In this document: positions 11,701-51,321 of the stretch, piece by piece
How positions within the stretch are numbered: the stretch's first letter is position 1
How the letters are laid out: every line of letters begins with the position of its first letter
From: Acetobacteraceae bacterium
GTDB taxonomy: Bacteria > Bacillota > Sulfobacillia > JAIMBG01
DNA length: 51,893 nucleotides
Assembly (NCBI GenBank): GCA_023511555.1
Contig: JAIMBG010000002.1
Span: 1 to 51,893 of the forward strand
Direction: 5' to 3'
Notes under the pieces: generated by a model
Databases searched by the model: none
Told to the model about the DNA's origin: nothing
Seen by the model: the letters and a program-made list of their open reading frames with translations, nothing else
Made by a program: the position numbers and the translations under genes

Positions 11701-12592
11701 CTACGCCCGGCTCGACGGGGAGGGGGAGGAGGTGGCCCGGGCCATTTACGAGCACTACCAGCCTCGCTTTGCGGGGGACGAGCCCCCCTCCACTGCGGCC
11801 GGGGCCCTGGTGGGGGCGGCCGACAGGCTGGACCTCCTGGCCGGATGCTTCATAGCCGGCATCCAGCCCACCGGTTCCGAGGACCCCTACGCCCTGAGGC
11901 GGCAGGGCTCGGGCCTGATCACGCTCCTACGCCGGCTCGACATGGAGGCGCCGCTCGGCAGGCTGGTGGCAGAGGCGCTCCAGGGATACGGACCGCTCCC
12001 CGGCGGCGGCCCTGCCGGGCAGGAGAAGGCGCTTCCGGCGCTGATGTCGTTTCTGGCCGACCGGATCCATACGCTCTTGGAGGAGGAGGGCTTCCGCTTC
12101 GACGTGATCCAGGCCGTGCTGGCCACTGGCAGCGACTCGGTGCCCCGCATCTGGGAAAGGGCCCGGGCCGTCTCCCGCCTGGTTGGCGAGCCCGAGGCCC
12201 TTGACGCCCTCGTCACCGTGTTCCGCCGCACGGCGCCGCTGTCCGGCGCCCGGGCCCAGGGGCTGGGGAAGACGCTGGAGCCGTACCTGGGGCCTGAGGC
12301 CGCCGCGCCGCCCGGAGTGGATGTGGGCCTCTTCCAGGACCCGGGCGAGGCCGAGCTTTACCGGGCGGCGCAAAGGGCCCGGGGGAAGGCGCTGCCGGCG
12401 ATCGCCGCCCGCGATTACGGGGCGGCGCTGGACGCCCTGGTGGAGATCCGGCCGGCCGTGGACCTGTTCCTGGACAAAGTGCTGGTCATGGCGGAGGACG
12501 CCCGAGTGCGTGCCAACCGCCTCAAGCTCTTGCACTCGATAGCCTGCCCCATCCTGGAGGTGGTGGACCCCGGCCGGCTGGTGGTGGCCTAG
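8642..12592 (+). CDS. glyQS: single ORF: DUF4342-like N-terminal module plus fused glycine--tRNA ligase alpha and beta subunits (GlyQS)
   Basis: Codons 1-125 ([37 protein letters not shown]...NCTIEVER) look like a UBA-like/DUF4342 protein. From about 9302, [17 protein letters not shown]...[19 protein letters not shown] is GlyQ. A Gly/Ala/Pro linker (about 10150-10330) leads into the GlyS N-terminus [14 protein letters not shown], which runs to the end. No stop occurs anywhere in frame. Possible internal starts are GTG 9302 and ATG 9317. Confidence 0.85.
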
Positions 12593-27917: not shown

Positions 27918-28925
27918 TCAGGACAGCCGCATTATCTTGGTGAGAATACCGATGACCCGATAGACGGCTGCCAGGCTCACCACGACGAGGGCAACCCATG
28001 CTGCCACCACGCACCGGATCCAACAGCCGCCCCCTCCGGGATTGACTAGGAGGAGTAGCCCCGAGTATAGGGCGAGGAAGAAGGGAGCTCGGCTGCCGAA
28101 TGCAACGTACTCCACCAGCAGGTCGTAGTATGTGGAGGAGGCATTGACTTCGACACGCCTGACCTCACGAATGGTGTTCCTCATCTCCATCGAGACGAGG
28201 ACTGTTTGGGGGGTGGCCATAAAGCCGACTAGGATGGCGCTCACACTTATCGTGGGGTTCAGGAGCTTCTCGAGGATTCGCTGTTGCACGTGAAGGGGTA
28301 GCCAGCAGAGGCTGACGACGAACGCGCACCCATCGCCGTCCGTCCCCGGTAACCGTCTGCACGGTGACGGGCTGGTGCCACCACCCCGCCTCGGCCAGGA
28401 AGCTCCGGGCCGGCGCCACCGCGCCGCTCTCGTCGTGGCGCCACTCGCTCCACAGGGCCGAGGTGTGAGCACGGCCATCTCCCCCCGAGAGATGGCGCAT
28501 TGGGCCCACTCCTCGAGGGTGTCGGGCTCATCCACGTCGCCCACGCTGAGTGTGATCTCCGAGTCTTGCTTCTCGTCCACCACCTCGAAGGTCCACCCCA
28601 CGCCGGCATCCTCCCAGTTGGTCATAGCCCCGTCAAGCCACGACTTCCACTCCTCGGTTGCCCCGTCGCCGCAGAAGATCCTCAAGTGGCGCCGCGGCTC
28701 CCCCGTCCTGGCGTCCCTGGCCCACTCCCAGGACTCGTCCACGTGGGCCAGGACGATGATGGAGACCGGGAGCACCAGCATTGCAGCCACAAACGCTGCC
28801 CGGCACGCCTGGCGCCCGCGCCATGGACCACCAAAGCCACCTCCTGCAATTCTAGTGGGGTCATACGGCCGTTGTCCTCGGCTTATTGGCTCTTGCCCTG
28901 GGCCACGCTGCCTCTGTTCCATCAA
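27918..28925 (-). pseudogene. hypothetical membrane protein ORF with an apparent internal double frame switch (mosaic or degraded gene)
   Basis: The ORF is intact over 335 codons. Between about 28490 and 28340, third-position G/C is high in the alternative frame (GDGRAHTSALWSEWRHDESGAVAPARSFLAEAGWWHQPVTVQTVTGDG). The annotated frame there gives an R/P/G/S-rich, off-frame-like sequence. The C-terminal 120 codons encode hydrophobic helices. The region is visibly lower in GC. Confidence 0.4.
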
Positions 28926-29179: not shown

Positions 29180-30433
29180 GTGCTGATCGGCGCGGCCAGT
29201 GGCCTGGCCGGCGCGCTGGCGGCGGTCCTGGTGCTCTGGGGCGCCTGGATGCTCCACGTCTTGGGCCTGCTGCTGACCCGGGCCACCCCGCTCCTGGGCG
29301 CGCTGGCGGTCGTGGTGCTGGGAGTGCTGGGGGGCGTGGCCTTTGGGGCGCTCTATCCCTGGCGGGGAACGAACGGAAGGCCGGGCGGCCAGGCCCGGGG
29401 CGGTCCTGGGGGAGGCGAGGGCCCTTCAGAGCCGCAGCCCAGTCCCGGGGTCGGCCCGGGACTTCGGGCCGCCCGCGTCCCCCGGGCACTCAGCCCCTGG
29501 GCGCTCGCGCTCAGCGGCCTGCTGCTGGGGGCAGGCATGTGGCTCGTCGGCCCCCTGGTCCTGGTGCCCAGGGTTCTGGGCTTCCCGGCCTTTCCCGCGG
29601 CGCCCACGGATCAGATCGCCTCGCTGGGGGCGTTCCTGGCCTACGGCCTGGTGACGGCCTTCGCCTTTGGGGCCGGGGTGCTTTCCTCCCGGGCCGCGGC
29701 GGCCCAGCGGACGGCCTCCCTCCTGGCGGTAGCGGCGCTGGGGTGCCTCCTGGCCTCGGCGGGATCGACCTTCTTCCTCCTCCGGGGCGCCAGGGCCACC
29801 GACCCCGCAGCCCTGGACCTGCCCCCCGGCTACCGGGCCGAGGTCGTGGCCAAAGGCCTCACCTTCCCCAGCAGCCTGGAGGTGGCCCCCGACGGGACGA
29901 TATACGTGGCCGAGTCGGGGTTCGTGTACGGCCCCAAGACCACCGTGGCCCGGGTGCTCGCCATTTCCCCCCAGGGCAGCGTGGCTGAGGTGGCCCGGGG
30001 CTTCGAGGGGCCGATAAACGGGCTCGCCCTTCGGGGCGGTCGGCTGTATGTCTCCCACCGGGCGAAGATCACCGTCCTGGACCTGGCGGAGAAGGCAGGC
30101 GGTGCCGCGCCCTCCGTAAGCGCCCGGCGGGACCTGGTCTCCGGGCTGCCTTCCCTGGGTGACCACCACAACAACGACCTCAAGTTCGGCCCCGACGGAA
30201 TGCTGTACGTGGGCCAGGGCACGGCGACCAACGCCGGGGTGGTGGGCTCGGACAACTTCGTCTACGCCTGGGCGGCCCGCTACCCGGGCTTCCACGACGT
30301 GCCCTCGCGCGACTGGACGCTGGTCGGCCAGTCTTACCCCGACCTGGACCTGCGCACCCCGGACCCCGCCGACCGCGTGGAGACCGGGGCGTTCGCGCCG
30401 TTTGGGACCAGGCGGCAGCAACGCCATCCCTGA
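29180..30433 (+). CDS. membrane-anchored protein with a partial glucose/sorbosone-dehydrogenase-like beta-propeller
   Basis: The N-terminal half has multiple hydrophobic helices. The C-terminal half has LPPGYRAEVVAKGLTFPSSLEVAPDGTIYVAE, LRGGRLYVS and FGPDGMLYVGQG, which are typical GSDH-type propeller blades. Only about 200 aa of propeller are present before the stop. Confidence 0.55.
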   Translation: MLIGAASGLAGALAAVLVLWGAWMLHVLGLLLTRATPLLGALAVVVLGVLGGVAFGALYPWRGTNGRPGGQARGGPGGGEGPSEPQPSPGVGPGLRAARVPRALSPWALALSGLLLGAGMWLVGPLVLVPRVLGFPAFPAAPTDQIASLGAFLAYGLVTAFAFGAGVLSSRAAAAQRTASLLAVAALGCLLASAGSTFFLLRGARATDPAALDLPPGYRAEVVAKGLTFPSSLEVAPDGTIYVAESGFVYGPKTTVARVLAISPQGSVAEVARGFEGPINGLALRGGRLYVSHRAKITVLDLAEKAGGAAPSVSARRDLVSGLPSLGDHHNNDLKFGPDGMLYVGQGTATNAGVVGSDNFVYAWAARYPGFHDVPSRDWTLVGQSYPDLDLRTPDPADRVETGAFAPFGTRRQQRHP

Positions 30434-30486: not shown

Positions 30487-32103
30487 TCACGGGGACTTCC
30501 GAGTCGGGTAAAGCACCAGCCACCCCCCCACCCACGCCATGTCGGGGCCTGCCAGCGGGTCTCCCGGCTCCAGCGGCCGCTTCAGCGCGAGATAGCCGGC
30601 GGGGGAGGGGCTCCAGTACGGGGCCGCCCAGGGGACGTCCCCGGCCCGTTCGCCGGTGGCCGCATCCACCAGCACGGGGCGGAGCAGGCCGCCTGAGGGG
30701 TCGGCGGCGCAGGCGCAGAGCTGGTCTTCGCCGATCCACTCCACGTAGTAAAGCCTCAGCCCCTGGGGCAGGGGCACCGCCTTCCCGGCCACGAAGTCCC
30801 ACAGGAGGCCCACCCCCGGCTGGCCGCCCTCGGCGGAGCTCTCCAGTGCCAGGTAGCGCCCCCCGGGGGAGAAGCAGAGCGGCAGACACACGGGGCCGGG
30901 GTCCAGGGGGAGGGCCTCGGTCTCAAAGCCTGGGGCGGAGGCCACGAGCACCCGGGACGGGCCGTCGTAGCTGACCCCGAACCCCGCCTCCCCCAGCGAC
31001 GCCCCGGCCACTGCGGCATAGGCCAGGCGGGAGCCGTCCTCCGACCAGGTCAGGCCCGCGGCCATCCCCCCGGCAAGGGCCAGGGCCGCGGTCGCGACCG
31101 GCTGAGGCGAGGCCAGGCTGCTGCGGGAGTATACGGTTATCGCCTGGCCGGCGCCGACGGGGTGCACGGCCTCCTCGGGGAACAGGGCCGTTTCGGCGTT
31201 GATGTGCAGCACCGCCAGCCACTCCGCGCCGGGCGCCGGGAGCGGGGCGAGGTACTGGCCCGGGACACTGAGCTCCCCCGCCACCGAGCCGTCGGGCAGC
31301 CGCACCAGCCTGAGCCCCCGGCCCTCCGTGGAGCCCGGCCCGTGGCGCACCGCCACCAGGGAGTCGTCGATCCAGGTCACATCCAGTCCCGCGTAGGGGA
31401 ATCCTCCCGGCGGGATGGCGGGGATCGGGGCCGCCCTCCAGCTCAGGGTGTCGTGGAGGAAGGTGCCTTGGGCGCAGAACCGAAGCAGCCATCTGCCTGA
31501 GGGAGAGAGCTGCAGGCCCTCGGCCGGGCCCAGGCACACCGGCTCCCCCTCCATAGGGACGTACCAGCCCGTCATTTCCTGAGGAGCCTCCCCGGCCTGG
31601 GGGTAGTGCAGGCTCACGAAGCCGGCCCCCTCCGGAAGGGGGTGCGGCCCGGCCGGCTCGCACTCCTGGGGGATGTCGCGGGCCCGGAACGCGCCGTCGG
31701 TGCCCAGGGTGAAGAACGCCTGAGAGGACCCGAGGTCTCCCCAACCCCAGGCCACCCCCGGGTTGACCCAGCCCACGGACCGGAGGTTGGCGAAGGGCCC
31801 CACCTGCCAGCGTCCCTCGACCAGCGCCGGGTGCAGTTCGGCGGCCGCCGCGGGGCCGGCCCAGCCCTTGTTCGGCGGGGCCGGGGCGCCCCCGTCCCCT
31901 GCAGGGGCCTCGCCTCCCGGAGCGCCCGCCCGGCCCTCCCCTGCCGGTGGGAGGGCCGGGCTCCCGCCGGCGGCGGGGGGCTTTTCCCCCGTCTTGTCCG
32001 CTGCGGGCGGGGCCGGGCGGCAGGAGGCAACAGCCACCAGCCCCAGGAGGAGCAGCGCCACCAGCACGGCGCCCCTTAGCCGCAGCCAGCCCTGTTTTGC
32101 CAT
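30487..32103 (-). CDS. lipoprotein with TolB-like/WD40-like beta-propeller repeats
   Basis: Signal peptide with lipobox (LVAVASC) and a Pro/Ala/Gly linker. Repeated SPSGRWLL, SEDGSRLAY and SPGGRYLAL motifs are characteristic of PD40/TolB-type blades. Confidence 0.6.
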   Translation of the reverse strand: MAKQGWLRLRGAVLVALLLLGLVAVASCRPAPPAADKTGEKPPAAGGSPALPPAGEGRAGAPGGEAPAGDGGAPAPPNKGWAGPAAAAELHPALVEGRWQVGPFANLRSVGWVNPGVAWGWGDLGSSQAFFTLGTDGAFRARDIPQECEPAGPHPLPEGAGFVSLHYPQAGEAPQEMTGWYVPMEGEPVCLGPAEGLQLSPSGRWLLRFCAQGTFLHDTLSWRAAPIPAIPPGGFPYAGLDVTWIDDSLVAVRHGPGSTEGRGLRLVRLPDGSVAGELSVPGQYLAPLPAPGAEWLAVLHINAETALFPEEAVHPVGAGQAITVYSRSSLASPQPVATAALALAGGMAAGLTWSEDGSRLAYAAVAGASLGEAGFGVSYDGPSRVLVASAPGFETEALPLDPGPVCLPLCFSPGGRYLALESSAEGGQPGVGLLWDFVAGKAVPLPQGLRLYYVEWIGEDQLCACAADPSGGLLRPVLVDAATGERAGDVPWAAPYWSPSPAGYLALKRPLEPGDPLAGPDMAWVGGWLVLYPTRKSP

Positions 32104-40199: not shown

Positions 40200-41372
40200 A
40201 TGTTAGCTGGCGCGGCGGGCGGGCGCAGAGCGGGCGCCGGGCGCGGTCTCAGGGGCGCCAAGGCGGAGGGCGCGGGCCTGGGGGTGCCTTTGCCGACGGA
40301 GCGCTTCGACCAGCGGCAGACGGTGTTCGCCAGGGCGCGGCGAGGGGAGCTGGGGGAGGCCGCGCTGGCCTGGGCCCTAAACGACGGGGTCCTGGAGTTC
40401 GACATTGCAGGAAACTGGGGCCTGGGAGCGGCGGCTTTGAGCCGGGCGGGGTTTGGCCTTGCCGGGGACCTGGAGTCCCTGCTGGACGGGCCCGTCGCGG
40501 CCCGGCGGGTGGCGGTGCCGGGGCCCCGGGCCATGTCCCGGGTCATCAAGGAGGTGGCCCGGTACCTCGGGGCAGACCTGGTCGGCGTGACCCGCTTCCA
40601 CCCTGCTTTCCTCTACAGCCACGACCAGGAAGGGCGCCCTCTGGCCAGCGACCATGCATTCGCCGTGGTCGTGGGACGGGCCATGGACTACGGCCACCTG
40701 CTCGGCAGCCCGGACCTGCCGTCCGGCGCCGCCACGGGCAAGGGCTACGCCGAGGTGGCTTTCATCGCTGCTTTCCTGGCCTCGTACATCCGGCGGCTGG
40801 GCTACTCTGCCCACGGGCACCGGAATCAGCGGGTGCTGCAGGTGCCCCTTGCGGTGAGCGCCGGCCTGGGGGAACTGGGCCGCTGTGGATTCGTGGTGTC
40901 GGCGCGGCTGGGGCCCCGGTTCCGGCTGGCCTCGGTGACCACCGACCTGCCGCTGGAGCCCGACCGGCCCGTCCGGCTGGGGGTAGAGGGTTTCTGCCGG
41001 GCCTGCCGCAAGTGTGCCCGGGCCTGCCCCTCGGGTGCCATCCCCGAGGGGAACCCGGTGGTGGTGCGGGGCGTGCGGCGGTGGCACATCGATGCCCTGC
41101 GCTGCTTCGGCTTCTGGGTCTCTCTGCGCGAGCGCTCGTACCAGTGCGCCCGCTGCATCTCCGCCTGCCCCTGGAACAAGCCTGACGCTCTTTACCATCG
41201 GGCCGCGGCCGGCCTGGTGCGCCGGGTGCCGGCCGCGTCCCGGGCACTGCTGTGGCTTGACGATGCCCTGGGGTTCGGGCGGCCGCGCCGGGCCGGAGGG
41301 GTGGGAGGAAAGGGAAGAGGTTCTGCGGACACTGCCGCCGGGGGCGGGGCCGCCCGCGGTCCCTGGTGGTGA
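40200..41372 (+). CDS. reductive-dehalogenase-family (RdhA-like) 4Fe-4S protein
   Basis: ERFDQRQTVF and IKEVARYLGADLVGVT, with two ferredoxin-type clusters: FCRACRKCARACPSGAI and CARCISACPWNKP. The start is uncertain; GTG 40284 is also possible. Confidence 0.6.
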   Translation: MLAGAAGGRRAGAGRGLRGAKAEGAGLGVPLPTERFDQRQTVFARARRGELGEAALAWALNDGVLEFDIAGNWGLGAAALSRAGFGLAGDLESLLDGPVAARRVAVPGPRAMSRVIKEVARYLGADLVGVTRFHPAFLYSHDQEGRPLASDHAFAVVVGRAMDYGHLLGSPDLPSGAATGKGYAEVAFIAAFLASYIRRLGYSAHGHRNQRVLQVPLAVSAGLGELGRCGFVVSARLGPRFRLASVTTDLPLEPDRPVRLGVEGFCRACRKCARACPSGAIPEGNPVVVRGVRRWHIDALRCFGFWVSLRERSYQCARCISACPWNKPDALYHRAAAGLVRRVPAASRALLWLDDALGFGRPRRAGGVGGKGRGSADTAAGGGAARGPWW

Positions 41373-41466: not shown

Positions 41467-41670
41467 GACCCCGGACCCCGGGCCGGGGGGCGCAGCTAGA
41501 GTCTGGCAGCTAGCTCCTTTCTAACGGACGTGGTCGACCTCGACGATGCGCCAGAGCGGGTCCACCACCTCGAGGGTCGGAGGCGAGTAAGCGTCCACTG
41601 TCTCACCCCCCTTATCGGGGTTGTGGGGATCCTCCCGTGCAGCTCTGCCCCCGCCCGGGCGTCCGGGGTC
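41467..41670 (-). repeat. copy A of an approximately 200-nt duplicated cassette (inverted-repeat arms bracketing sORF A)
   Basis: The arms GACCCCGGACCCCGGG (41467-41482) and CCCGGGCGTCCGGGGTC (41654-41670) are complementary apart from 1 nt. The interior aligns with 42493-42693, including the SD sequence, the start codon and CTCGAGGGTCGGAG. Confidence 0.75.
41521..41598 (-). CDS. sORF A, candidate RiPP precursor peptide (25 aa: MDAYSPPTLEVVDPLWRIVEVDHVR)
   Basis: GTG start lies 4 nt after AAGGGGGGTGAGA (Shine-Dalgarno-like); TAG stop. It is a paralogue of sORF B, with synonymous differences at conserved residues. It is not in the ORF track because it is below the size cutoff. Confidence 0.6.
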   Translation of the reverse strand: MDAYSPPTLEVVDPLWRIVEVDHVR

Positions 41671-41767
41671 ATCTGCCTGCCAGGGCTGCCCTGTCTGCCA
41701 GGGCCGCCCGCTTTCAGCCCTTCTTGCTCGGCCTCCCTCCGCCTCGGGCCGGCCGCCGCCGGGGGCG

Positions 41768-42316
41768 TCATCCGGCCTCGGGCCGGTGCCACTTCTTGAG
41801 GAACCCCCCGAGTGCCCGGTACAAGGGCAGGAAGAGGACGGAGTTGATGCCGCTGTGGAGCAGGTTGAAGGGGACGATAGTGGGCAGGATCATGGGCACC
41901 ACAACCGCCCGGGGCACGCCCAGGTAGATGGGGGTCACGATGAGGTTGGCGGGGACCATGACCGCGGCACGGGCTATGATGCCGCAGGCCAGCCCCAGCA
42001 CCGCCCCTCCCCAGCTCGGCCTGCGCCGGTAGATCAGGCCCGCCACGCATACGAAGGCGCTGGCCGCGATGAAGTGCATCAACCCTCCCCAGGGCCCGCC
42101 CTTGCCGGTGATCAGCACGAACAGCGAAGCGGTGATCAGTGCCAGTACCGCTCCCACGCCGGGGCCCAAAGCGAAGGAGCCCATCACGATCGGCAGGTCC
42201 CCCGGCGAGTACAGCAGGAATGGGGCGGCGGGGAGGACGGGAAAGTGTACGGTCACCTCGAGCAGGAGAGACAAGCCGGCCAGGATCGCGGTGGTCGTAA
42301 GCTTGCGTGCGTTCAA
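41768..42316 (-). CDS. ECF-transporter S-component-like membrane protein (RibU/ECF_trnsprt-like)
   Basis: 182 aa with about 5-6 TM helices. HFPVLPAAPFLLYSPGDLPIVMGSFALGPGVGA, GGLMHFIAASAFV and IVPFNLLHSGINSV resemble the RibU-type substrate-capture subunit. TTG start lies 7 nt after AGGAGG. Confidence 0.65.
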   Translation of the reverse strand: MNARKLTTTAILAGLSLLLEVTVHFPVLPAAPFLLYSPGDLPIVMGSFALGPGVGAVLALITASLFVLITGKGGPWGGLMHFIAASAFVCVAGLIYRRRPSWGGAVLGLACGIIARAAVMVPANLIVTPIYLGVPRAVVVPMILPTIVPFNLLHSGINSVLFLPLYRALGGFLKKWHRPEAG

Positions 42317-42492
42317 GGCGCAACCTCCTAAGCGGCCCGGCCCCTGGGGACTTCCGCCGCGGTGTCCCGGGGCCCGGCGAAGTCGTTGGCATGCGGACGC
42401 GCCTTGCGGCGCGCCCTCGCGTGACCACCCGCCAATTCTACGCCGTACCGGGCGATTCCTCCTGGCAGGCTTTCGGGCCTGGGGGCCAGCCG

Positions 42493-42693
42493 CCCCCGGA
42501 CGCCCTGCAGGGCTACAAGCTACGTTGCGGCGGCTCCTTGACGTCTAAGGCGATATCACGTCGACCTGGACGCTACGCCACGAGGGATCAAGAAGCTCGA
42601 GGGTCGGAGCGACGTACGTGTCCACGTCCTCACCCCCCGCCGAGAAGTGTCCCACGCCTGCCGCATCGGCCCATCCCTGAGGGCGTCCGGGGA
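42493..42693 (-). repeat. copy B of the duplicated cassette (inverted-repeat arms bracketing sORF B)
   Basis: The arms CCCCCGGACGCCCTGCAGGG (42493-42512) and CCCTGAGGGCGTCCGGGGA (42675-42693) are complementary apart from a 1-nt bulge. The right arm starts 2 nt after the radical SAM stop codon. Confidence 0.75.
42545..42625 (-). CDS. sORF B, candidate RiPP precursor peptide (26 aa: MDTYVAPTLELLDPSWRSVQVDVISP)
   Basis: GTG start follows GGGGGGTGAGG; TAG stop. It lies 69 nt downstream of the radical SAM gene on the same strand. It shares MD.Y..PTLE..DP.WR.V.VD with sORF A. Confidence 0.6.
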   Translation of the reverse strand: MDTYVAPTLELLDPSWRSVQVDVISP

Positions 42694-42694
42694 C

Positions 42695-43987
42695 CTACGT
42701 TGGGCGGCTGGCTTGCACCGCGAGGATCATCTTGACGTATCCCCTCTTGAGGTCGTCCACCGACATGGTGTCGGTCTCACATGTAGGGCAGGTCAGCTCG
42801 TACCGCGAGAAGTCGTGCCCCAGTATGGTCACCCCCAGCTCCCGGGCCCGCTCCCGAATGGCGGTACCGGGGAAGGGGGTCAGCATGCTGACCGTGACCC
42901 GGTCGGGCCGGAGCGTGCGGATGAACTGGCAACTGGCCTCCAGGCTCTGCAGCGTCTCCCCCGGCAGGCCCACGATGAACGTCGCGTAGACCTCCAGGCC
43001 GGCCGCCTGGGCGTTGCGCACCGCCTCCCACGCCTGCTCCACCTTGATCCCCTTGGTGGCGCGGTCCAGCACCTCCTGGGTGCAGCTTTCGATTCCGACC
43101 AGCACCCCGGTGCAGCCGGAGTCCCTCAGCATCTCGGCGACCCCGCGCGTCAGGCTGTCGGCCCGGGTGTTGCAGGCCCACCGCACGCCCAGGCCGCTGG
43201 AGCCGAGCAGCCGGCACAGCTCCTCCAGGCGGCGGCGGCTGAGCACGAAGGTGTCGTCGCAGAACAGCACCTTGTTCACGCCGTAGTCGGTGCCCAGGGA
43301 CGCGATCTCTTCCACCACCCGACGCGGCGAGTGGGTTCGGACGCGGGTCCCCGAAAACGCAGAGGCTGAGCAGAACGTGCAGCCGAAGGGGCACCCCCGC
43401 GCCGACCCCACCAGCCCCTGCTGCTCCACGTCGTAGAGGTGCATGGGGAGCAGGTGCCGGGCGGGGGGCGGGAGGCTGTCGAGGTCGTGCACCGGCTCAG
43501 GTTGCGGGCCGACGGTGATCCTGCCGTTCCCCTCCCGGACCGCCAGGCCGGGACAGCCCGAGAGCGGCTCCCCCCGGTCCAGCCGCCGCACGGCCTCGAC
43601 GATCGCGGTCTCCCCCTCATAGAGGCAGACGGCGTCGGCCACGCCCGTGTCCAGAAGCCGCCTGTGCTCGAAGGTGGCGTGGTTGCCCCCCAGGATCAGG
43701 GCGGCCTCCGGCAGCAGGGCCCTGACGGTCCGTGCGGCCTCCACAGCCCCCGGCTCGGTGAACGACATGTTCAGTGAGATTCCGACCAGGCGGGGGGGAG
43801 GCTGAAGGTAGCCGGCTATGTCCCGGCCCGACAGCTTCATGACGGCCATGTCCAGGACGGAGGGGCGGGCCCCTGCCCTCTCGAGCACTGCAGCCAGGCT
43901 GGCCAGCCCCAGCGGAGGGGCGAAGCGGGATGAGGAATGGCGAAAGGCGTGATAAGGCCACGGCGGGTTGACCAGAAGCACTCTCAT
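42695..43987 (-). CDS. B12-binding-domain radical SAM protein
   Basis: N-terminal Rossmann-like cobalamin-binding-type region (RVLLVNPP...LGLASLAAVLERAG...LVGIS...ILGGNHAT), followed by the CxxxCxxC cluster motif GCPFGCTFCSA and a TIM-barrel core. Confidence 0.85.
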   Translation of the reverse strand: MRVLLVNPPWPYHAFRHSSSRFAPPLGLASLAAVLERAGARPSVLDMAVMKLSGRDIAGYLQPPPRLVGISLNMSFTEPGAVEAARTVRALLPEAALILGGNHATFEHRRLLDTGVADAVCLYEGETAIVEAVRRLDRGEPLSGCPGLAVREGNGRITVGPQPEPVHDLDSLPPPARHLLPMHLYDVEQQGLVGSARGCPFGCTFCSASAFSGTRVRTHSPRRVVEEIASLGTDYGVNKVLFCDDTFVLSRRRLEELCRLLGSSGLGVRWACNTRADSLTRGVAEMLRDSGCTGVLVGIESCTQEVLDRATKGIKVEQAWEAVRNAQAAGLEVYATFIVGLPGETLQSLEASCQFIRTLRPDRVTVSMLTPFPGTAIRERARELGVTILGHDFSRYELTCPTCETDTMSVDDLKRGYVKMILAVQASRPT

Positions 43988-44018
43988 GGCCCGCTCCTCC
44001 CGACCTAACCCGCGCTCA

Positions 44019-44372
44019 TTACTCGTCGGGCACCAGGAACTTGCCCTCTTTCAGGGCTTCCAGGAAGCGTTCCAGATCCCTTCGCAGAACGTCTTCAGGG
44101 ACGCGGGGGAAGCGCTGCGCCAGCCGGGCCAGCATGGCCTGGGGGGGAGTACCCCCGTCGCACATCTCCCAGACCATCAGGCCCACATCGTTCACCAGGC
44201 CGACGCGCCCCGAGACCAGGTCGATGAGGGCGGTCTTGCCCTCGTAGGCCACGGAGTCCACGTCGTCGCGCCGGCGGGGGCAGGCCGACCCGGCCCCGGT
44301 GCCCCCAGGGGCGGGGTCCGCCGGTGCCGCCTCGGCCGCTGAGCGGGCGGCTGTGTCTCCACCCTCCCCCAT
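44019..44372 (-). CDS. PqqD-family protein (stand-alone RiPP recognition element-like)
   Basis: ALIDLVSGRVGLVNDVGLMVWEMCDGGTPPQAMLARLAQRFPRVPEDVLRRDLERFLEALKEGKFLV fits the PqqD pattern. ATG 44372 lies 7 nt after AGGGGGTG. The ORF-track start at 44498 lies in AT-rich intergenic DNA. Confidence 0.75.
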   Translation of the reverse strand: MGEGGDTAARSAAEAAPADPAPGGTGAGSACPRRRDDVDSVAYEGKTALIDLVSGRVGLVNDVGLMVWEMCDGGTPPQAMLARLAQRFPRVPEDVLRRDLERFLEALKEGKFLVPDE

Positions 44373-44634: not shown

Positions 44635-45933
44635 GTGGGTGAAGGACGGCGGTGGTCAGGAGGGGGGCGGGCGGTCTGCGCCCTGTCCCTGGCGGTCTTG
44701 GTTTCGGTCCTGGCGTCCGCGCCGGCCGTTGCCGGCGGGGGGCTGGGGGCGGCCGCCGGGGGTGCCCCCCCGGCGGGGGGGGGGACGGCGGCGTCCTTCC
44801 CCCTCTCGCTGGACAGCGCGGTCGCCCTGGCGCTCGACTCAAGCCCGCGGCTGAAGGCGGCCGAGCTTGCCCTAAGCCAGGCCCGGACCGCGCTTAAGAT
44901 GGCGGAGGCGGCGGCCGACGACGCCCCGGAGGAGCCGCCGGAGGTGCCTTCCATCCCCGGGGTCCCTCTGCCGGCGGTGACCGTCCGGGACTACATCGAG
45001 CTCGCCAGGCTAAAGGAGCTTGGCCCGCGGCAGGCCAGGGCGGCCGTGGCGGTGGCGGAGGCGGCGCTCCACACCGCCGAGCTCGGGGTGCGCTTCGAGG
45101 TGGAGAAGGCGTTCTACGAGCTGATCAAGGCCAAGGGCCTTCTGGACGTGGCTCGGCTCGCCCTGCAGCGGGGGGAGAGGCAACTCGACCAGGCCAGGGC
45201 GTTCCTGGAGGCGGGGACGGTGGCCCGGACCGACCTTCTGGCCGCCGAGGTCGCGGTGGCCGGGCTGAAGGCTAACCTGGTCACAGCCGACAGGCTGTAC
45301 CGGTTAGCCATGATGAACCTCAATCGGGCGATGGCCTACAGCCTGGAAGCGGTATGGGAGCCGGCGGAGGGGGAGGGTGAGATCGGCGGGCTGGGCGTGG
45401 CGGCCCCTGGAGAGGGGTCGGGCGCGGAGGGCGGCGGCACAGCCGCCAGCGGCGCAGAGGCCGCGGAACAGCCCAACCTGGGGTCCGCCCTGGCCCTGGC
45501 GCTTCAGAGCCGCCTGGAGCTAATCCAGGCCCGCGAGGAGCTGGAGTGCCGCCGCCTGGACCATGACATACTGTCGAGGTACTACGCCTCCAACGTCTGG
45601 GAGCGCCGGCAGGCCGCTTACGCGGTCCAGTCCGCCGAGGCGTCGCTGCGTGAGAAGGAGTTGCAGGTGGAGTTCGAGGTCCGCTCCGCCTGGCTCAGCG
45701 TGGACGATGCCCGACAGCGCGTCGCGCTGCTGAACAAGGCCGTGGAGCAGGCCAGGGAGGGCCTCCGCCTGGCAGAGCTGCGCTATGCGGCAGGGCTGGC
45801 AACCAGCCTGGAGGTGCTCTCGGCCCAGGTCAGCCTCAGCCAGGCCGAGGCCCAGGTGGTCCAGGCCGCCTGCGACCTCAAGGTGGCCCTGGCGGCGTTC
45901 CGGCTGGCGGCAGCCTGGGGGGTGGCAGAGTGA
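44635..45933 (+). CDS. TolC-family outer membrane efflux protein
   Basis: A signal-like N-terminus, then two OEP repeats (LSLDSAVALALDSSPRLKAAELAL...; ...LEVLSAQVSLSQAEAQVVQAACDLKVALAAFRLA). Confidence 0.8.
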   Translation: MGEGRRWSGGGRAVCALSLAVLVSVLASAPAVAGGGLGAAAGGAPPAGGGTAASFPLSLDSAVALALDSSPRLKAAELALSQARTALKMAEAAADDAPEEPPEVPSIPGVPLPAVTVRDYIELARLKELGPRQARAAVAVAEAALHTAELGVRFEVEKAFYELIKAKGLLDVARLALQRGERQLDQARAFLEAGTVARTDLLAAEVAVAGLKANLVTADRLYRLAMMNLNRAMAYSLEAVWEPAEGEGEIGGLGVAAPGEGSGAEGGGTAASGAEAAEQPNLGSALALALQSRLELIQAREELECRRLDHDILSRYYASNVWERRQAAYAVQSAEASLREKELQVEFEVRSAWLSVDDARQRVALLNKAVEQAREGLRLAELRYAAGLATSLEVLSAQVSLSQAEAQVVQAACDLKVALAAFRLAAAWGVAE

Positions 45934-46916
45934 GCGCATTGCGCCGGGTCATAGCCGTCGTCCTTGTGACCGGCGTCCTGGGGGCGGTGGTGGCGGCCCT
46001 GGCCTGGCCCCGCCGGGCGCCCCAGTGGCTGGAGGCCTCGGGCACCGTCGAGGCCACCGAGGTGGCGGTGGGCGTCCAGGTGGGAGGCCGGGTGGCGGAG
46101 GTGCTGGCGGAGGAGGGGGCCGAGGTGGGCGAGGGCCAGCCGCTGCTCAGGCTGGACAGCCGCGCGGCGGAGCTCCAGGTGCGCCAGGCCCGTGCCGCCC
46201 TGGACGCGGCGGAGGCCTCCCTGGCCAACCTGCGGGCCGGGACCCGCTCCGAGCAGCTCCGCCAGGCCGAGGAGGCGGTCTCCCAGGCGCAGGCGGTGCG
46301 GGACCAGGCGGCCGCCAACCTGGAAACCGTCCGGTCGCTGCTGGCCCAGGGAGCCGCCACCCAGTCGCAGCTCGACGCCGCAGCCACCCAGGCCCGCACC
46401 TCTGAGGCGGCTTACGCCCAGGCCTTGGCACAGCTCGATCTGCTGCGGGCGGGGGCCACCAGCCACGCCTTGCGCATGCAGTCGGCCCAGGTGGAGCAGG
46501 CCAGGGCCGCCCTGGAGCTGGCGGAGCTGCATCTCGAGCAGACGACGGTGGCCTCACCGTCGAACGGAGTGCTGGTCTCGGTCGGCGTGGAGCCGGGGGA
46601 GGTGGTCCCGGTCGGTGCCGCCGTGGCCGTGGTGGCCGACCTTTCCCGGCTGTGGATACGGGTCTATGTGCCTGAGGCCGACCTGGGAAAGGTCTCGGTG
46701 GGCCAAAGGGTGAAGGTCAGGGTGGACGCCTTCCCCGGCCAGGAGTTCTCCGGCCGGGTGGCGTGGATTTCCAGCCGGGCGGAGTTTACCCCCAAGAACG
46801 TCCAGACCCGCGAGGAAAGGGTGAACATGGTGTTTGCCGTCAAGGTGGCGCTGGACGACTCGGGTGGCCGGCTGAAGCCGGGCATGCCCGCCGACGTGAC
46901 CTTCCCCGGCCAGTGA
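45930..46916 (+). CDS. HlyD-family periplasmic adaptor (YbhG-like)
   Basis: TM anchor, lipoyl-like GTVEATEVAVGVQVGGRVAEV...GQPLLRLD, a coiled coil, and a beta-barrel with SPSNGVLVSV and LKPGMPADVTF. The GTGA start/stop overlaps the TolC gene. Confidence 0.85.
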   Translation: MSALRRVIAVVLVTGVLGAVVAALAWPRRAPQWLEASGTVEATEVAVGVQVGGRVAEVLAEEGAEVGEGQPLLRLDSRAAELQVRQARAALDAAEASLANLRAGTRSEQLRQAEEAVSQAQAVRDQAAANLETVRSLLAQGAATQSQLDAAATQARTSEAAYAQALAQLDLLRAGATSHALRMQSAQVEQARAALELAELHLEQTTVASPSNGVLVSVGVEPGEVVPVGAAVAVVADLSRLWIRVYVPEADLGKVSVGQRVKVRVDAFPGQEFSGRVAWISSRAEFTPKNVQTREERVNMVFAVKVALDDSGGRLKPGMPADVTFPGQ

Positions 46917-46961
46917 GGGTTGGGCCCGGGCGGGTCGGCGGGCCAGGGGAGGTAGGGGAGG

Positions 46962-48377
46962 GTGGACAGAGGCCCCGCGGAAGGCAGTGCCCCGGCCGCA
47001 GGGGCGGCGGGCGCGCGGGCGGCCGGTGAGCCCAGGCTGTGGTCGCAGTACCTTCACCTGGGCAAGTACATATACTGGCTGGTTCTGGCTTCGGTGCTTA
47101 TCAGCGTCGGCGGCCAGCTCGAGGCGGCGTTGTTCCCGGTCTACTTTCAGGAACTGGGCGGCTCCCCTCGCGCGCTCGGCTGGTACATGTCCCTTACGCA
47201 CCTGCTCATCGGCGGGTTCATGATCCTGGGCGGGTGGGCGGCCGACCGCTACGACCGCCGCTGGCTGTTCGTGCTGGCCTCCGGCCTGGCCCTGGGGCGG
47301 TACGTAATGCTGGCCGCGTCGCCCAACTGGATATGGCTCTATCCGGCACTCCTGCTGCTGGTGGGGGCCTCGGTCCTCTCCAATCCGCTGTTCTTCAGCC
47401 TGACAGCGGACCTTTCGCCCCCGGGCCGGCGCGGGGCGGCGTTCGCCTTCGCCAACGGCGCGCTGTCGCTGGTGGGGGCGCTCACGCCGCTGGCGGGAGG
47501 GATCGTCTACCAGTTCAAGGGATTCAGGCTGCTGCTGTGGGCGTGCGCCGGCCTGGCGGCCGTGGCGGCCTACCTCCGCAGCCTGCTGATAGAGCCGCGC
47601 AAGCTGCAGGCCGGCGCCGTTCCAGCCAGCGGCGGGGCGGCTTCCGCCGCAGTCCCGAAGGGAGCGGGCGCGCCCATGGGAGCCGCGCCGGAGGGCCCCG
47701 GCGGGGCCCCTGCACGGTCGCCTGCCGGGCCATCCCGGCCGGGGCTGAAGGACCCCTTCCGGGAGGTGGGCCTGGCCATATGGCAGGCGGTCCACACTCC
47801 GGAGCTGGTGCTGGCCCTGGTGGCCCTGGGGGTGCTGTCGTTCGTCATCACCCTGGCCCAGGTCTACTACCCCCTCTATGCCCTAAACGAGCTCAGGCTT
47901 CCCGTGGGGTGGGTGGGGGGGCTTTACTCGTGGCAGTGCGTGGCGGGGACCCTGGCGGGGATGGCGGTGGGAGGGCTGCTGGTGCGCCGCCTCCACCTCT
48001 GCGTGGCCGGGTCGGCCGCGGCGGCGGCCCTGGCGGCCCTGGGCCTGGGTCTGGGAAGATCGCTGCCCTGGGCGTTCGTGGCGTTCGGGCTGGCGGGGGT
48101 GTGCAGCGGGGTGGCCATGCCCGCCTCGATGGTGTGGATCTCCGCCAACAGCCCGCCGGGCAAGATGAACACGGTGTACGCCGCCTTCCGCTGCGTGCTC
48201 ATCTTCGCCAACATGCCCGCACCCGCCTGCGGCGGGCTGCTCTGGTCGCGGTTCGGGCCCCAGGCGATGCTGCACGCCCAGTTTTGGCCCGCTGCGGTGT
48301 TTTTCGTAGGGTTCGCGGCGTTCCTGGGCCTAAAGCGTGGGCTTACTCCGAGCCGGGCACGGACTGGGGCGGCCTGA
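46962..48377 (+). CDS. MFS transporter
   Basis: About 12 predicted hydrophobic helices, an MFS loop motif GGWAADRYDRRW, and a long central loop. The start is uncertain. Confidence 0.75.
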   Translation: MDRGPAEGSAPAAGAAGARAAGEPRLWSQYLHLGKYIYWLVLASVLISVGGQLEAALFPVYFQELGGSPRALGWYMSLTHLLIGGFMILGGWAADRYDRRWLFVLASGLALGRYVMLAASPNWIWLYPALLLLVGASVLSNPLFFSLTADLSPPGRRGAAFAFANGALSLVGALTPLAGGIVYQFKGFRLLLWACAGLAAVAAYLRSLLIEPRKLQAGAVPASGGAASAAVPKGAGAPMGAAPEGPGGAPARSPAGPSRPGLKDPFREVGLAIWQAVHTPELVLALVALGVLSFVITLAQVYYPLYALNELRLPVGWVGGLYSWQCVAGTLAGMAVGGLLVRRLHLCVAGSAAAAALAALGLGLGRSLPWAFVAFGLAGVCSGVAMPASMVWISANSPPGKMNTVYAAFRCVLIFANMPAPACGGLLWSRFGPQAMLHAQFWPAAVFFVGFAAFLGLKRGLTPSRARTGAA

Positions 48378-48402
48378 GGGCGGCGGGGAGGGAGGTGAGG
48401 CG

Positions 48403-49359
48403 GTGGGGTTCGCCGGGCTCGAGGTGGAGGGGCTGGTGAAGAGGTTCGGGGGCGTCCCCGCCGTGTCAGGCCTTTACTTCTCTGTCGCCCCGGGGGAGGT
48501 TTACGGGCTTCTGGGGCCGGACGGGGCGGGCAAGACCACGGCCCTCCGCTGCCTGGCAGGGGTGCTGAGGGCGGATGCCGGGACGGTGAGGGTGGCCGGC
48601 TTTGACCTTCGCCGCAGTCTGGAGCGTGCCCGGGCAAACCTGGGGTACATGCCCCAGGGACAGGCGATCTACGGTGACCTCACGGTGGAGGAGAACCTCT
48701 CCTTCTTCGCCGCTCTCTACGGGGTGGGGCCGGAGTGGGCCGAGAGACGCCGGAGCCTGCTTGAATTCAGCCGGCTGGAGGAGTTCCGGCACCGGCTGGC
48801 GGCGCACCTCAGCGGTGGGATGAGGCAGAAGCTGGCCCTGTGCTGCGCGTTGGTGCACTCACCCCCCGTCCTGCTCCTCGACGAGCCCACCACGGGGGTT
48901 GACGCCGTGTCCCGACGGGAGTTCTGGCAGCTGATAGGGCGGCTCCGGGAGGCGGGGTCGGCCGTGCTCGCCACCACTGCCTACCTGGAGGAGGCGGAGC
49001 GCTGCAGCCGGGTGGGCTTCCTGCTGGGCGGCCGACTGGTGGAGGAGGGGGAGCCGTCCCGCCTCCAGGGGTCGCTCTGGGGCCGGCTGGTCAGGGTAAG
49101 AACCGGCCCCGGCCAGCTTCTCAGCGCCGCGGACCACCTGAGGAGGCAGCGCCCGGACTGGACGGTAAGGCTCGGGGCCGACGCACTGGTGGTCTTGCTC
49201 CCGGCGGGGGCCGGGGGTGCGGCCGCCGTGGAGGCGGTGGCGGCGGAGCTCAGGCGTGCAGGCTTGTCTGTAGCCGACGCGGGTCTTTCCGCGCCCCGCC
49301 TGGAGGACGCTCTCGCCGCAAGGCTCAGGACGGGGGGTGGGGGCGATGGCGGCCGTTGA
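48403..49359 (+). CDS. ABC transporter ATP-binding protein (first of two)
   Basis: Walker A GPDGAGKTT, signature LSGGMRQKL, Walker B LLLDEPTTGVD. GTG 48403 follows GGAGGTGA. Confidence 0.9.
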   Translation: MGFAGLEVEGLVKRFGGVPAVSGLYFSVAPGEVYGLLGPDGAGKTTALRCLAGVLRADAGTVRVAGFDLRRSLERARANLGYMPQGQAIYGDLTVEENLSFFAALYGVGPEWAERRRSLLEFSRLEEFRHRLAAHLSGGMRQKLALCCALVHSPPVLLLDEPTTGVDAVSRREFWQLIGRLREAGSAVLATTAYLEEAERCSRVGFLLGGRLVEEGEPSRLQGSLWGRLVRVRTGPGQLLSAADHLRRQRPDWTVRLGADALVVLLPAGAGGAAAVEAVAAELRRAGLSVADAGLSAPRLEDALAARLRTGGGGDGGR

Positions 49360-50191
49360 GGTCGAGGCGCTTAGCAAGCGGTTTGGGCGGTTCTTGGCCG
49401 TGGACGCGGTGAGCTTTCGTGTGGAGGAGGGCGAGATCTTCGGGTTCATCGGGCCCAACGGCTCCGGCAAGTCCACCACCATCCGCATGCTCTGCGGGAT
49501 TCTCACCCCCACCTCCGGCCGGGCAGCGGTGCTGGGCCTCGACGTCCAGCGCGAGCCGGAGGCCGTGAAGCGGCGGATAGGCTACATGTCGCAGAGGTTC
49601 GGGCTGTACACCGACCTCACCGTCCGGGAGAACCTGGAGTTCTACGCTGGGGTCTACGGGCTGGGCGCAGGTGAGCGGCGCCGCCGGGTGGAGGAGGTGA
49701 TGGCCGCCGTGGGACTGGGGCCCAGGGGGGGCCAGGTGGCCAGGGGACTGGCCACGGGATTCAGGCAGAGGCTGGCCCTGGGCTGCGCTCTGCTCCACCG
49801 CCCCCGCCTGCTCTTCCTGGACGAGCCCACCGCGGGCGTCGACCCCCTGTCCCGCCTGGAGATGTGGGAGCTCATCTACCGCCTGGCCGCGGACGGCGTG
49901 ACCGTGTTCCTTACCACCCACTACCTGGACGAGGCCGACCGCTGCCACCACCTGTGCTTCATAGAGCGGGGCCGCATCGTCGCCGACGGCACGCCTCACT
50001 CCCTCCGCCGCGCCCGCCTGGGGCGCGCCAGGGCGGGGGCCGGAGCGTCGGAGGGACGGGACGTCGCGCAGCCTGCCCCTGCGGCCGGCCCGCCCGGGTC
50101 CGAAGACGAGGTCTCCCTCGAGGAGGTCTTCCTGGGCTTCGTGACGCCGGGCGGCGGCGCCGGGGGCGAAGAGGGGGGCGGACCGCGGTGA
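49346..50191 (+). CDS. ABC transporter ATP-binding protein (second of two)
   Basis: Walker A GPNGSGKST, Q-loop, signature-like ATGFRQRLAL, Walker B LFLDEPTAGVD, H-loop TTHY. Overlaps the preceding gene by 14 nt. Confidence 0.9.
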   Translation: MAAVEVEALSKRFGRFLAVDAVSFRVEEGEIFGFIGPNGSGKSTTIRMLCGILTPTSGRAAVLGLDVQREPEAVKRRIGYMSQRFGLYTDLTVRENLEFYAGVYGLGAGERRRRVEEVMAAVGLGPRGGQVARGLATGFRQRLALGCALLHRPRLLFLDEPTAGVDPLSRLEMWELIYRLAADGVTVFLTTHYLDEADRCHHLCFIERGRIVADGTPHSLRRARLGRARAGAGASEGRDVAQPAPAAGPPGSEDEVSLEEVFLGFVTPGGGAGGEEGGGPR

Positions 50192-51321
50192 GCGGCAGAA
50201 GGCTATGGGCCATAGTGCGCAAGGAGTTCATCCAGGTGCTGCGCGACCGCGCCACCCTGATCATCATGCTGGCAATGCCCGTGGCGATGATGTTCATCTT
50301 CGGCTACGCCGTGTCCACCGACGTAGATCACATCGCCACCGCCCTCTGGGACCAGGACCTCACCCCCGCCAGCCGGCTCCTGGTAGAGAAGCTCCAGCAG
50401 TCCAAGTACTTCGAGTTCACCCACCGGGTGCGGTCGACGGAGGAGATGCGCCGGCTCATAGACGGGGGCCTGGTCAAGGCCGGCCTTATCATCCCCCCGG
50501 GGTTCTCCCGCCAGCTCCTGCAGGGCGAGACCGCCCAGGCCCAGGTGGTCATCGACGGCTCCGACCCCCTCGTGGCCGGCACGGCGCTCTCCACCGCGCT
50601 GTCGGTCGCCCAGGCCCACGGGGCGGAGCTTCTCGCCCAAAGGCTCGCCGCTGCCGGGCTGGGGAGCCGGGCCCAGCCGCCCATAGACCTGAGACCCCGC
50701 GTCTGGTACAACCCCGACCTGGTCAGTCTCCGCTTCAACCTGCCCGGCCTGGTGGGCGCCATCCTCCAGAACCTCACCATACTGCTCACCGCGTTCGCCC
50801 TGGTCCGGGAGAAGGAGCGGGGCACGGTGGAGCAGCTCATCGTGACGCCCGTCCGGCCCGCCGAGCTGGTGCTGGGCAAGCTCCTGCCCTATGTGCTCAT
50901 CGGGATGACGGAGGTGGCGTTCACGCTGGCGGTGGGGGTGCTGTGGTTCAGGATTCCGGTGACGGGCAGCGTGTGGCTGCTGTTTGCGCTTTCGCTGGTA
51001 TTCGTGCTGAGCGCCCTGGGCGTGGGCCTGTTCGTCTCCACTCAGGCCCAGAACCAGTTGCAGGCCATGCAGATGGCGTTTGCCTTCCTCCTTCCCAGCA
51101 TCCTGCTCTCGGGCTTCATCTTCCCTCGCGAGGCCATGCCCGCCGTGGTCCGGGGCCTGGGGTACGTCATCCCCCTCACCTACTTCCTCAAGGTGCTCCG
51201 CGGCATCATCCTGAAGGGGGTGGGGCTGGACCTCCTCTGGAGGGAGGTGGTGTTCCTGGGGGTGTATGGCGTGCTCATCCTGGCGCTGGCGTCGTGGAGG
51301 TTCAGGAAGAAGCTGGACTAG
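50188..51321 (+). CDS. ABC-2 type transporter permease (YbhS/YbhR-like)
   Basis: RLWAIVRKEFIQVLRDRATL at the N-terminus, a large periplasmic loop, then five C-terminal TM helices. The GTGA start/stop overlaps the ATPase gene. The ORF-track start at 49864 is an over-extension. Confidence 0.88.
   Translation: MSGRRLWAIVRKEFIQVLRDRATLIIMLAMPVAMMFIFGYAVSTDVDHIATALWDQDLTPASRLLVEKLQQSKYFEFTHRVRSTEEMRRLIDGGLVKAGLIIPPGFSRQLLQGETAQAQVVIDGSDPLVAGTALSTALSVAQAHGAELLAQRLAAAGLGSRAQPPIDLRPRVWYNPDLVSLRFNLPGLVGAILQNLTILLTAFALVREKERGTVEQLIVTPVRPAELVLGKLLPYVLIGMTEVAFTLAVGVLWFRIPVTGSVWLLFALSLVFVLSALGVGLFVSTQAQNQLQAMQMAFAFLLPSILLSGFIFPREAMPAVVRGLGYVIPLTYFLKVLRGIILKGVGLDLLWREVVFLGVYGVLILALASWRFRKKLD

Follow-up and report, generated by a model that had tools for sequence, protein, structure and literature searches.

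Here we describe a small minus-strand gene cassette on contig JAIMBG010000002.1 (assembly GCA_023511555.1), of which a stretch of 51,893 nucleotides was analysed as a whole (hereafter the window). The cassette encodes a stand-alone PqqD-family protein, a radical S-adenosylmethionine (SAM) enzyme with a B12-binding domain (hereafter rSAM) and two short open reading frames (sORFs A and B). We read it, with a probability of about 0.65, as a minimal system for a peptide made on the ribosome and altered after translation (RiPP) that depends on a RiPP recognition element (RRE), combining a lasso-type leader and its chaperone with a radical SAM enzyme in place of the lasso protease and cyclase. The identities of the genes and domains, the order in which enzyme gene and sORF follow one another, the coding signature of the sORFs and the motif in their products are established by computation. 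A sequence-only reading of the same DNA had proposed a RiPP-like operon of five features, all of which are confirmed, within minus-strand positions 41521 to 44372; the proposal survives our checks on the sORFs and on the enzyme family, although several of its side claims are corrected below.

Two paralogous sORFs encode peptides with a lasso-type leader motif

sORF B (VDTYVAPTLELLDPSWRSVQVDVISP; initiator-corrected, (V->M)DTYVAPTLELLDPSWRSVQVDVISP) and sORF A (VDAYSPPTLEVVDPLWRIVEVDHVR; initiator-corrected, (V->M)DAYSPPTLEVVDPLWRIVEVDHVR) each start with GTG 6–7 nt after GGGGGGTGAG, a strong ribosome-binding site (RBS). They share 68% DNA identity between unrelated flanks, which marks them as paralogues. 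Their GC content by codon position (0.77/0.35/0.88 in sORF A and 0.67/0.41/0.74 in sORF B) follows the pattern of the genome's real genes, with low values at the second position and high ones at the third, a pattern absent from intergenic gaps. Both peptides carry YxxPxL at residues 4–9 (YSPPTL and YVAPTL). sORF B lies directly 3’ of the rSAM gene, and an unrelated transporter gene stands between sORF A and the enzyme genes. An AAGGAGC heptamer, which could be RBS-like or a processing signal, is found within a few bases 3’ of both peptide-gene stops (window 41499–41520 and 42518–42544, minus strand), followed after sORF A by a short hairpin; the two intergenic regions at the peptide genes fold no better than shuffles.

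A word-index search of 5.8 billion proteins with the rSAM returned only four close relatives (42–53% identity), all metagenomic and confined to two lineages, one comprising L001 to L008 and L091 to L093 and the second L009. The nearest are P0003 (53%), P0002 (50%) and P0004 (48%). Pairwise identities identify P0002 and P0003 as orthologues of the window rSAM, and P0004 and the first rSAM of L009 as a second paralogue. The L001 lineage has the order MFS-MFS-PqqD-rSAM(P0003)-sORF-rSAM(P0004)-MFS and L009 the order rSAM-MFS-rSAM(P0002)-sORF, the PqqD region being missing from L009 because the contig is cut upstream. In both lineages the orthologous rSAM gene is directly followed, in the place that sORF B occupies in the window, by a same-strand ORF of 24 amino acids with an ATG start and a strong Shine–Dalgarno sequence (TAGGAGGTG or AAGGAGGTG), encoding MDVDYEAPVADIVEGDSANFQLKA in L001 and MGEPYEAPVVDIVGNDTISVQIHW in L009. 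The order of rSAM and sORF is kept in all three lineages, and PqqD lies upstream in both where that region is present. A conserved sORF adjoining homologous rSAM/PqqD pairs, as the sequence-only reading had anticipated, is found after the orthologous rSAM in both further lineages, with PqqD visible in one. The L001 locus also holds, about 7 kb from the orthologous cassette (1–826, minus strand), a 32-amino-acid ORF (MDLRIEDFEIETLDDINASVVNDGSGGIGVCA) beside a 735-amino-acid rSAM with a faint B12-binding match, a second and different RiPP-like pair.

All four sORFs encode 24–26 amino acids, have a strong Shine–Dalgarno sequence 6–7 nt before the start and place a Tyr at residue 4 or 5. Such lengths had been called unusually short; they are comparable to PqqA, a peptide of similar size. 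The four products align without gaps to the pattern Y-x-x-P-x-x-[DE]-Φ-Φ-x6-[VF]-[EQ]-Φ, in which the closing triad, 16–18 residues from the Tyr, reads V-E-V in sORF A and V-Q-V, F-Q-L and V-Q-I in the other three. A longer motif put forward earlier for database searches, MD.Y..PTLE..DP.WR, proved specific to the window, the conserved part being Y-x-x-P-x-x-[DE]-Φ-Φ ... [VF]-[EQ]-Φ. Six-frame searches for the full motif gave no other match across 1.53 Mb, and 200 shuffled windows contained none. Because the motif was derived post hoc, the peptides were compared by a generic measure as well: the window peptides scored 9 to 26 against those of L001 and L009 in ungapped BLOSUM62 alignment, with null fractions from 1.4e-3 down to 9e-6 among 2.09 million positions, the highest being that of sORF B against the L009 peptide (26; 9e-6).

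The sORFs might instead not be substrates at all, being chance ORFs or cis-regulatory leader peptides beside a PqqD and an rSAM that act elsewhere, or the locus might be a decaying lasso remnant. Such readings would accommodate the motif-level character of the peptide similarity across lineages, the transporter gene that sets one sORF apart and the lack of both protease and cyclase in the cassette. They are hard to reconcile, however, with four sORFs in three lineages that keep a common position, length, RBS and ungapped motif despite about 50% divergence of the enzymes, or with the coding-type GC by codon position and a motif that is exactly the one bound by the closest RRE type (PMC12710340). 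Moreover, all enzyme ORFs of the cassette are intact, and a search for riboswitch or attenuator-like structure found none. We consider these readings very improbable.

The PqqD-family protein resembles a discrete lasso RRE

The PqqD protein belongs to PF05402 (47.9 bits vs a cut-off of 23.4; E=1.7e-12), with model positions 4–66 of 67 covered. We placed its start at ATG 44372, preceded by GGGGGTG, rather than at the upstream GTG 44498, because the alignment with the orthologue begins there. In L001/L004 the gene preceding the orthologous rSAM encodes a PqqD that is 48% identical to it, N-terminal extension included. Among proteins of solved structure, sequence search picked out just one relative, the lasso RRE TbiB1 (5v1u, E=0.01); the match covers residues 36–111 and with them essentially the whole domain. 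No NCBIfam PqqD-subtype cut-off was reached (TIGR03859, 25.3 bits vs 46), and the score against the lasso model NF033530 was 23.8 bits vs a cut-off of 70. A word-index protein search with PqqD alone returned only the query itself; a profile search added only the known L004 orthologue and two weaker matches (P0123 and P0126) in unrelated contexts, and in a metagenome scan with the PqqD profile rSAM partners appeared only in the L001 lineage. On these similarities the protein is a putative leader-binding RRE. Discrete RREs of this kind have been recorded beside radical SAM enzymes before: a survey with RRE-Finder counted about 300 that match the lasso model and adjoin rSAM enzymes outside lasso clusters (PMC7470986).

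The radical SAM enzyme has a B12-binding-like domain and no curated family

The rSAM begins with a B12-binding-like Rossmann domain (PF02310, 56.4 bits vs 32.1), followed by a radical SAM core (PF04055, 94.7 bits vs 29.5) with the sequence RGCPFGCTFC and cysteines C199-x3-C203-x2-C206, the domain make-up of class B. It has no SPASM or twitch domain, a Pfam search giving no SPASM match at E<=0.01. The protein falls below every NCBIfam cut-off, its best partial matches being BchE (176 bits vs 481), HpnJ (164 vs 578), ApyD (157 vs 750), PhpK, HpnR and AprD4. The model for AprD4-family diol dehydratases (NF033070) scored 128 bits vs 500, and none of the neighbouring genes is sugar-modifying; that for RiPP C-methyltransferases of the proteusin/NHLP type (TIGR03975) scored 96.6 bits vs 281.85. 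The enzyme thus joins no curated non-RiPP family; firm clustering with a non-RiPP function was the outcome that the sequence-only reading had named as fatal to its proposal.

An AlphaFold2 (AF2) model of the rSAM was confident (pLDDT 95). Foldseek ranked AprD4 first (TM 0.79/0.75, 25% identity), followed by TsrM, MgmA/QCMT, CysS, TokK and OxsB. AprD4 was also the best phmmer match in the PDB (E=1.9e-30), in an alignment confined to residues 166–416. An invariant GGNHAT in the N-terminal domain (residues 100–105) has GGPHVP in TokK and GGPQVM in CysS as its counterparts in the alignment.

These comparisons bear on whether the enzyme uses cobalamin. AprD4 and ArsL have a Rossmann-like domain yet bind no cobalamin (PMC12931638), and cobalamin dependence of the window rSAM is therefore not to be assumed. 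The same cassette could thus hold a cobalamin-independent enzyme like AprD4 or ArsL that catalyses epimerisation, desaturation, C–C, C–S or C–O cross-linking or a rearrangement. AprD4 heads both the sequence and the structure rankings, the rSAM is short (430 amino acids) like AprD4, and RiPP enzymes of the B12-domain type are not confined to methylation, since PbsB forms a cross-link (PMC12257519). However, the AprD4 alignment begins only at residue 166, while the N-terminal domain and its GG motif match TokK and CysS; the Pfam B12-binding score is well above its cut-off (56 bits vs 32), and that against the NCBIfam AprD4 model is far below (128 vs 500). The N-terminal alignment and the partial nature of the AprD4 match point to cobalamin use, and we consider a cobalamin-independent enzyme unlikely. 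Of the earlier assignment to a cobalamin-binding class, the homology of the domain stands; cobalamin use is putative, the closest solved structure being that of an enzyme without it.

The cassette combines features of several known systems

Experiments have characterised YxxPxL, or YxxP, as the recognition sequence of lasso leaders, where it spans −17 to −12 and a discrete B1 RRE binds it (PMC10368454, PMC12710340). The window shares with lasso systems such as TbiA/TbiB1 both this motif near the precursor N terminus and a discrete PqqD-family RRE of about 90–120 amino acids. Numbering the Tyr as −17 puts the [VF]-[EQ]-Φ triad at −2, −1 and +1, and some lasso precursors have Val or Ile at leader position −2 (PMC10368454). 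Neither a B2 leader peptidase (transglutaminase-like) nor a cyclase (Asn-synthetase-like, PF00733) was found in the scanned genes, and tblastn of a B2 protein from a Syntrophomonas lasso-type cluster (L041) against the window gave only E>=1.2. After a lasso-type 17-residue leader the four peptides have variable tails of 3–6 residues (VDHVR, VDVISP, LKA and IHW), five remaining past the −1 equivalent in sORF A and six in sORF B, too few for a macrolactam ring of 7–9 residues plus a tail. With so few residues past the leader and no gene for B2 or a cyclase, the cassette is therefore not a lasso system. The earlier statement that no lasso cyclase, protease or SPASM domain is visible holds for the scanned window genes and for the rSAM.

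Radical SAM enzymes with B12 domains were already established in RiPP biosynthesis by ApyD, MpcB and PbsB, so the novelty that the sequence-only reading implied for this point falls away. ApyD, itself RRE-containing, C-methylates to form β-methyltyrosine in aminopyruvatide (PMC10635010). It shares with the window a B12-domain rSAM and an RRE directed at a ribosomal peptide, and it is the third-best NCBIfam match, at 157 bits over the B12 domain and rSAM core. In contrast, the ApyD model (NF050148) has about 645 residues with a fused RRE, is matched only over positions 23–390, and has its counterpart here in two genes; the window neighbours include no MNIO, P450 or methyltransferase gene, and the peptides have neither a C-terminal Asp nor a YLY motif. 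MpcB carries out iterative β-C-methylation in clavusporin with a DUF5825 partner, in a system that is similarly minimal, its short precursor and B12-rSAM being joined by a small partner protein that is obligatory (PMC10849626). The target regions in both cases contain Val or Ile, and MFS transporters adjoin the orthologous clusters of the window cassette. Compared by gene context, the window differs in having PqqD rather than DUF5825, no S9 peptidase and another leader, and the hosts are Actinobacteria there and Bacillota-type or metagenomic here. PbsB couples biaryls (PMC12257519). The substrate of MgmA is a polypeptide in which a glutamine becomes C-methylated (PMC11796369), and a conserved Gln or Glu is also present in our peptides. 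The structures of MgmA/QCMT (9ccb) and AprD4 (6fd2) share the two-domain fold (TM 0.68–0.79), whereas identity to the window rSAM is 21–25% and neither enzyme uses an RRE or leader peptide; AprD4 acts on an aminoglycoside and binds no cobalamin (PMC12931638).

The pathways of pyrroloquinoline quinone (PQQ; PqqA/D/E) and mycofactocin (MftA/B/C) likewise pair a very short precursor with one rSAM and a PqqD-type chaperone encoded on its own. By the logic of those pathways, the peptide, instead of being bioactive itself, could be a scaffold on which a diffusible small metabolite or cofactor is built, its triad or tail being modified and the product released by unlinked proteases. The formal layout with a precursor of 24–26 amino acids, the 3–6 residues left after a lasso-type leader, and the neighbouring genes for a vitamin importer like RibU and for a homologue of corrinoid reductive dehalogenases all fit such a role. 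Yet no gene resembling PqqB/C/F or MftD/E/F lies among the neighbours, the enzyme has a B12-binding domain and no SPASM domain, and the peptides have neither the E-x3-Y nor the C-terminal GVY signature; their tails are variable, unlike those of PqqA or MftA, and the importer and the dehalogenase homologue are unconserved in the orthologous clusters. We regard a metabolite scaffold as decidedly improbable.

The open-access literature contained no described class that joins YxxPxL peptides, a discrete PqqD and a B12-rSAM. The full combination, in which the rSAM is short and the post-leader segment has 3–6 residues, matched no curated family. The earlier judgement that this is not a described RiPP class accordingly stands for the combination, while each component type has a precedent. 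Since RREs of the discrete PqqD type, RiPP enzymes of the B12-rSAM type and precursors some 25 amino acids long are all precedented, the cassette is not categorically new.

A model for leader-guided peptide modification

The scheme that we infer runs from PqqD binding through the site and chemistry of modification and the use of cobalamin to leader removal and export. The paralogous precursors of 25–26 amino acids would offer their lasso-type Y-x-x-P-x-L at residues 4–9 to the discrete PqqD, which would bind this segment as an extra β-strand in the fashion of an RRE and then deliver the peptide's C-terminal portion to the rSAM. Reductive cleavage of SAM would generate a 5’-deoxyadenosyl radical, which would attack an unactivated carbon within or close to the conserved [V/F]-[E/Q]-[V/I/L] triad and remove a hydrogen from it. 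The likeliest outcome would be C-methylation of the kind seen with PoyC, MpcB, ApyD and MgmA, by way of methylcobalamin bound in the N-terminal domain, with a cross-link or a cobalamin-independent reaction as alternatives. On ribosomal peptides or proteins, B12-rSAMs are known to C-methylate (ApyD, MpcB and MgmA) and to couple biaryls (PbsB). By this analogy C-methylation near the triad is our leading candidate, held at somewhat less than even odds.

Several findings weigh against the RiPP cassette. The single-sequence AF2 model of PqqD is of low confidence (pLDDT 57), and the nearest structure to the rSAM, AprD4, is a cobalamin-free diol dehydratase that acts on a sugar (PMC12931638). Across the compared clusters no protease or dedicated exporter is conserved, and three other rSAM relatives (37–42% identity) have no PqqD nearby, one of them (P0039 in L133) standing in a sugar-modifying context. 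In an unbiased BLOSUM scan of all loci the L001 and L009 peptides were not the top matches, their similarity to the window peptides being weak; we therefore do not take the scores by themselves as proof of homology. The match is significant only when the comparison is confined to the approximately 745 same-strand positions downstream of the two orthologous rSAMs, where about 0.007 chance matches are expected at the best score. Taken with ORF length, RBS and Tyr position, which add to the scores, the conservation of the peptides appears real, with moderate statistical support.

If the proposed RiPP cassette is correct, the recognition module of lasso leader and B1 protein also serves class-B radical SAM enzymes beyond lasso biosynthesis, and the locus offers a three-gene system of about 2 kb for delivery of a peptide by a discrete RRE to a B12-domain rSAM. 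Such enzymes are hard to study, and their peptide chemistry so far comprises methylation, cyclopropanation and biaryl coupling; very short peptides with a conserved triad at a fixed distance from the recognition motif would make this one tractable. No concept would be overturned, orphan rSAM/RRE clusters being common in the output of genome mining. A bolder version, in which a clade of short B12-domain rSAMs has captured a lasso-type leader/RRE module to form an undescribed RiPP class, would have a precursor that is almost all leader, with the triad and its tail of 3–6 residues as substrate and an ultrashort modified peptide, or a small molecule derived from it, bearing a new radical modification as product. 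We think this version rather unlikely.

More distant relatives are often, though not always, peptide-associated

A full HMMER search of 1.84 billion representative proteins with the rSAM revealed a continuous shell of proteins of about 440 amino acids at 300–440 bits and 35–38% identity (P0142–P0284). This shell ruled out the reading of an extremely rare family that the four close relatives alone had suggested. When genome contigs were scanned with the rSAM alignment, the matches listed all stayed at or below 38% identity. Some matches, P0139, P0140, P0145 and others similar, span 1800–2600 amino acids with up to seven tandem rSAM-profile matches, and are either giant fusions or gene-calling artefacts.

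PqqD is encoded nearby in three of six further rSAM relatives inspected. Among the more distant PqqD/B12-rSAM loci, with rSAM identities of 36–38%, two have YxxPxΦ peptides: L130 has the order peptide (MPYIKPALLPS...), PqqD, B12-rSAM, and L137 the order rSAM, PqqD, a 30-amino-acid peptide with an I/V-rich tail (MNKQEYVTPSIATVKDLSSFNIKIVIIVTG), PqqD, B12-rSAM, ABC, ABC-2. A third locus, L136, encodes a PqqD-fused B12-rSAM, a 33-amino-acid ORF, two more B12-rSAMs and one SPASM rSAM. In Pelotomaculum (L014, 5187–11301) a SPASM rSAM stands beside two consecutive PqqD/B12-rSAM pairs, and no YxxP peptide was found in that cluster. The Syntrophomonas locus L041 (4898–9422) is a lasso-type cluster with a B1 PqqD, B2 and a 473-amino-acid B12-rSAM 32% identical to that of the window; two precursors on the opposite strand have YETP and YDTP leaders and read ...YETPSVVVYEDL..., and the cluster may make a lasso peptide tailored by a B12-rSAM. 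The rSAM clade is frequently, not always, associated with peptides.

The cassette is an island in a Bacillota-type chromosome

The cassette forms a small minus-strand island amid plus-strand genes, flanked on one side by a reductive-dehalogenase-family gene and on the other by a divergent efflux operon (Table 1).

Table 1. Features of the cassette and the adjoining operon, in window coordinates
Feature	Coordinates	Strand	Assignment
PqqD-family protein, 117 aa	44019..44372	-	PF05402; putative RiPP recognition element (leader-peptide chaperone)
Class-B-type radical SAM enzyme (rSAM), 430 aa	42695..43987	-	PF02310 + PF04055
sORF B, 26 aa, putative precursor peptide	42545..42625	-	GTG start, RBS, coding GC, YxxPxL
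RibU-like ECF transporter S component, 182 aa	41768..42316	-	PF12822; between the two peptide genes
sORF A, 25 aa, putative precursor, paralogue of sORF B	41521..41598	-	GTG start, RBS, YxxPxL
Divergent efflux operon	44635..51321	+	TolC-like OEP, HlyD, MFS, 2 ABC ATPases, ABC-2 permease

The membrane protein encoded between the peptide genes is an S component of an energy-coupling factor transporter (ECF-S; PF12822, 71.6 bits vs 30.7) that resembles the RibU structures 5kc0/5kbw (E=7e-24). It reaches no NCBIfam subtype cut-off, and its substrate is therefore inferred. The gene has a TTG start after TAGGAGGT, a strong RBS of its own. No FMN or cobalamin riboswitch was detected upstream of it, even at E<=5, and no unusual RNA structure relative to shuffles. 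L001 and L009 have no counterpart and carry MFS_3 transporters instead. Because it is absent from the orthologous clusters, the gene is probably not a core part of the cassette, and it is probably a passenger or accessory. The sequence-only reading, which listed the gene as ECF-S-like within the array, had this identity right.

The efflux operon, separated from the PqqD gene by a 262-bp intergenic region, matches the Pfam families OEP, HlyD_D23, MFS_1, ABC_tran (twice) and ABC2_membrane_3, and is a possible exporter for the cassette. An exporter shared across the clusters was ruled out, the window MFS not being orthologous to the MFS_3 genes of L001 and L009. Among the scanned called genes of the 52-kb window there was no gene for a lasso peptidase or cyclase, YcaO, LanB/C or a protease, and a promoter and terminator scan gave nothing over background.

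The window has a GC content of about 72% and a gene order typical of a Bacillota chromosome: phoH, 7TM-HD, ybeY, cdd, era, recO, glyQS and ppdK, then dnaG, sigA, three tRNAs, NIF3, RNase H and RNase P RNA. Convergent with sORF A, the reductive-dehalogenase-family protein (40200–41372, plus strand) scores 168.9 bits against TIGR02486 (cut-off 160.35), has two 4Fe-4S motifs and represents a second corrinoid-enzyme family. An ORF of 1316 amino acids (8642–12592, plus strand) joins DUF4342 with the GlyRS alpha and beta domains, and is either a fused glyQS or an ORF whose start was called too far upstream. Four large ORFs with coding-type GC have no Pfam match (15589–18159, minus; 27918–28925, minus; 29180–30433, plus; 30487–32103, minus), and two of the four sit in segments of lower GC (0.63–0.66).

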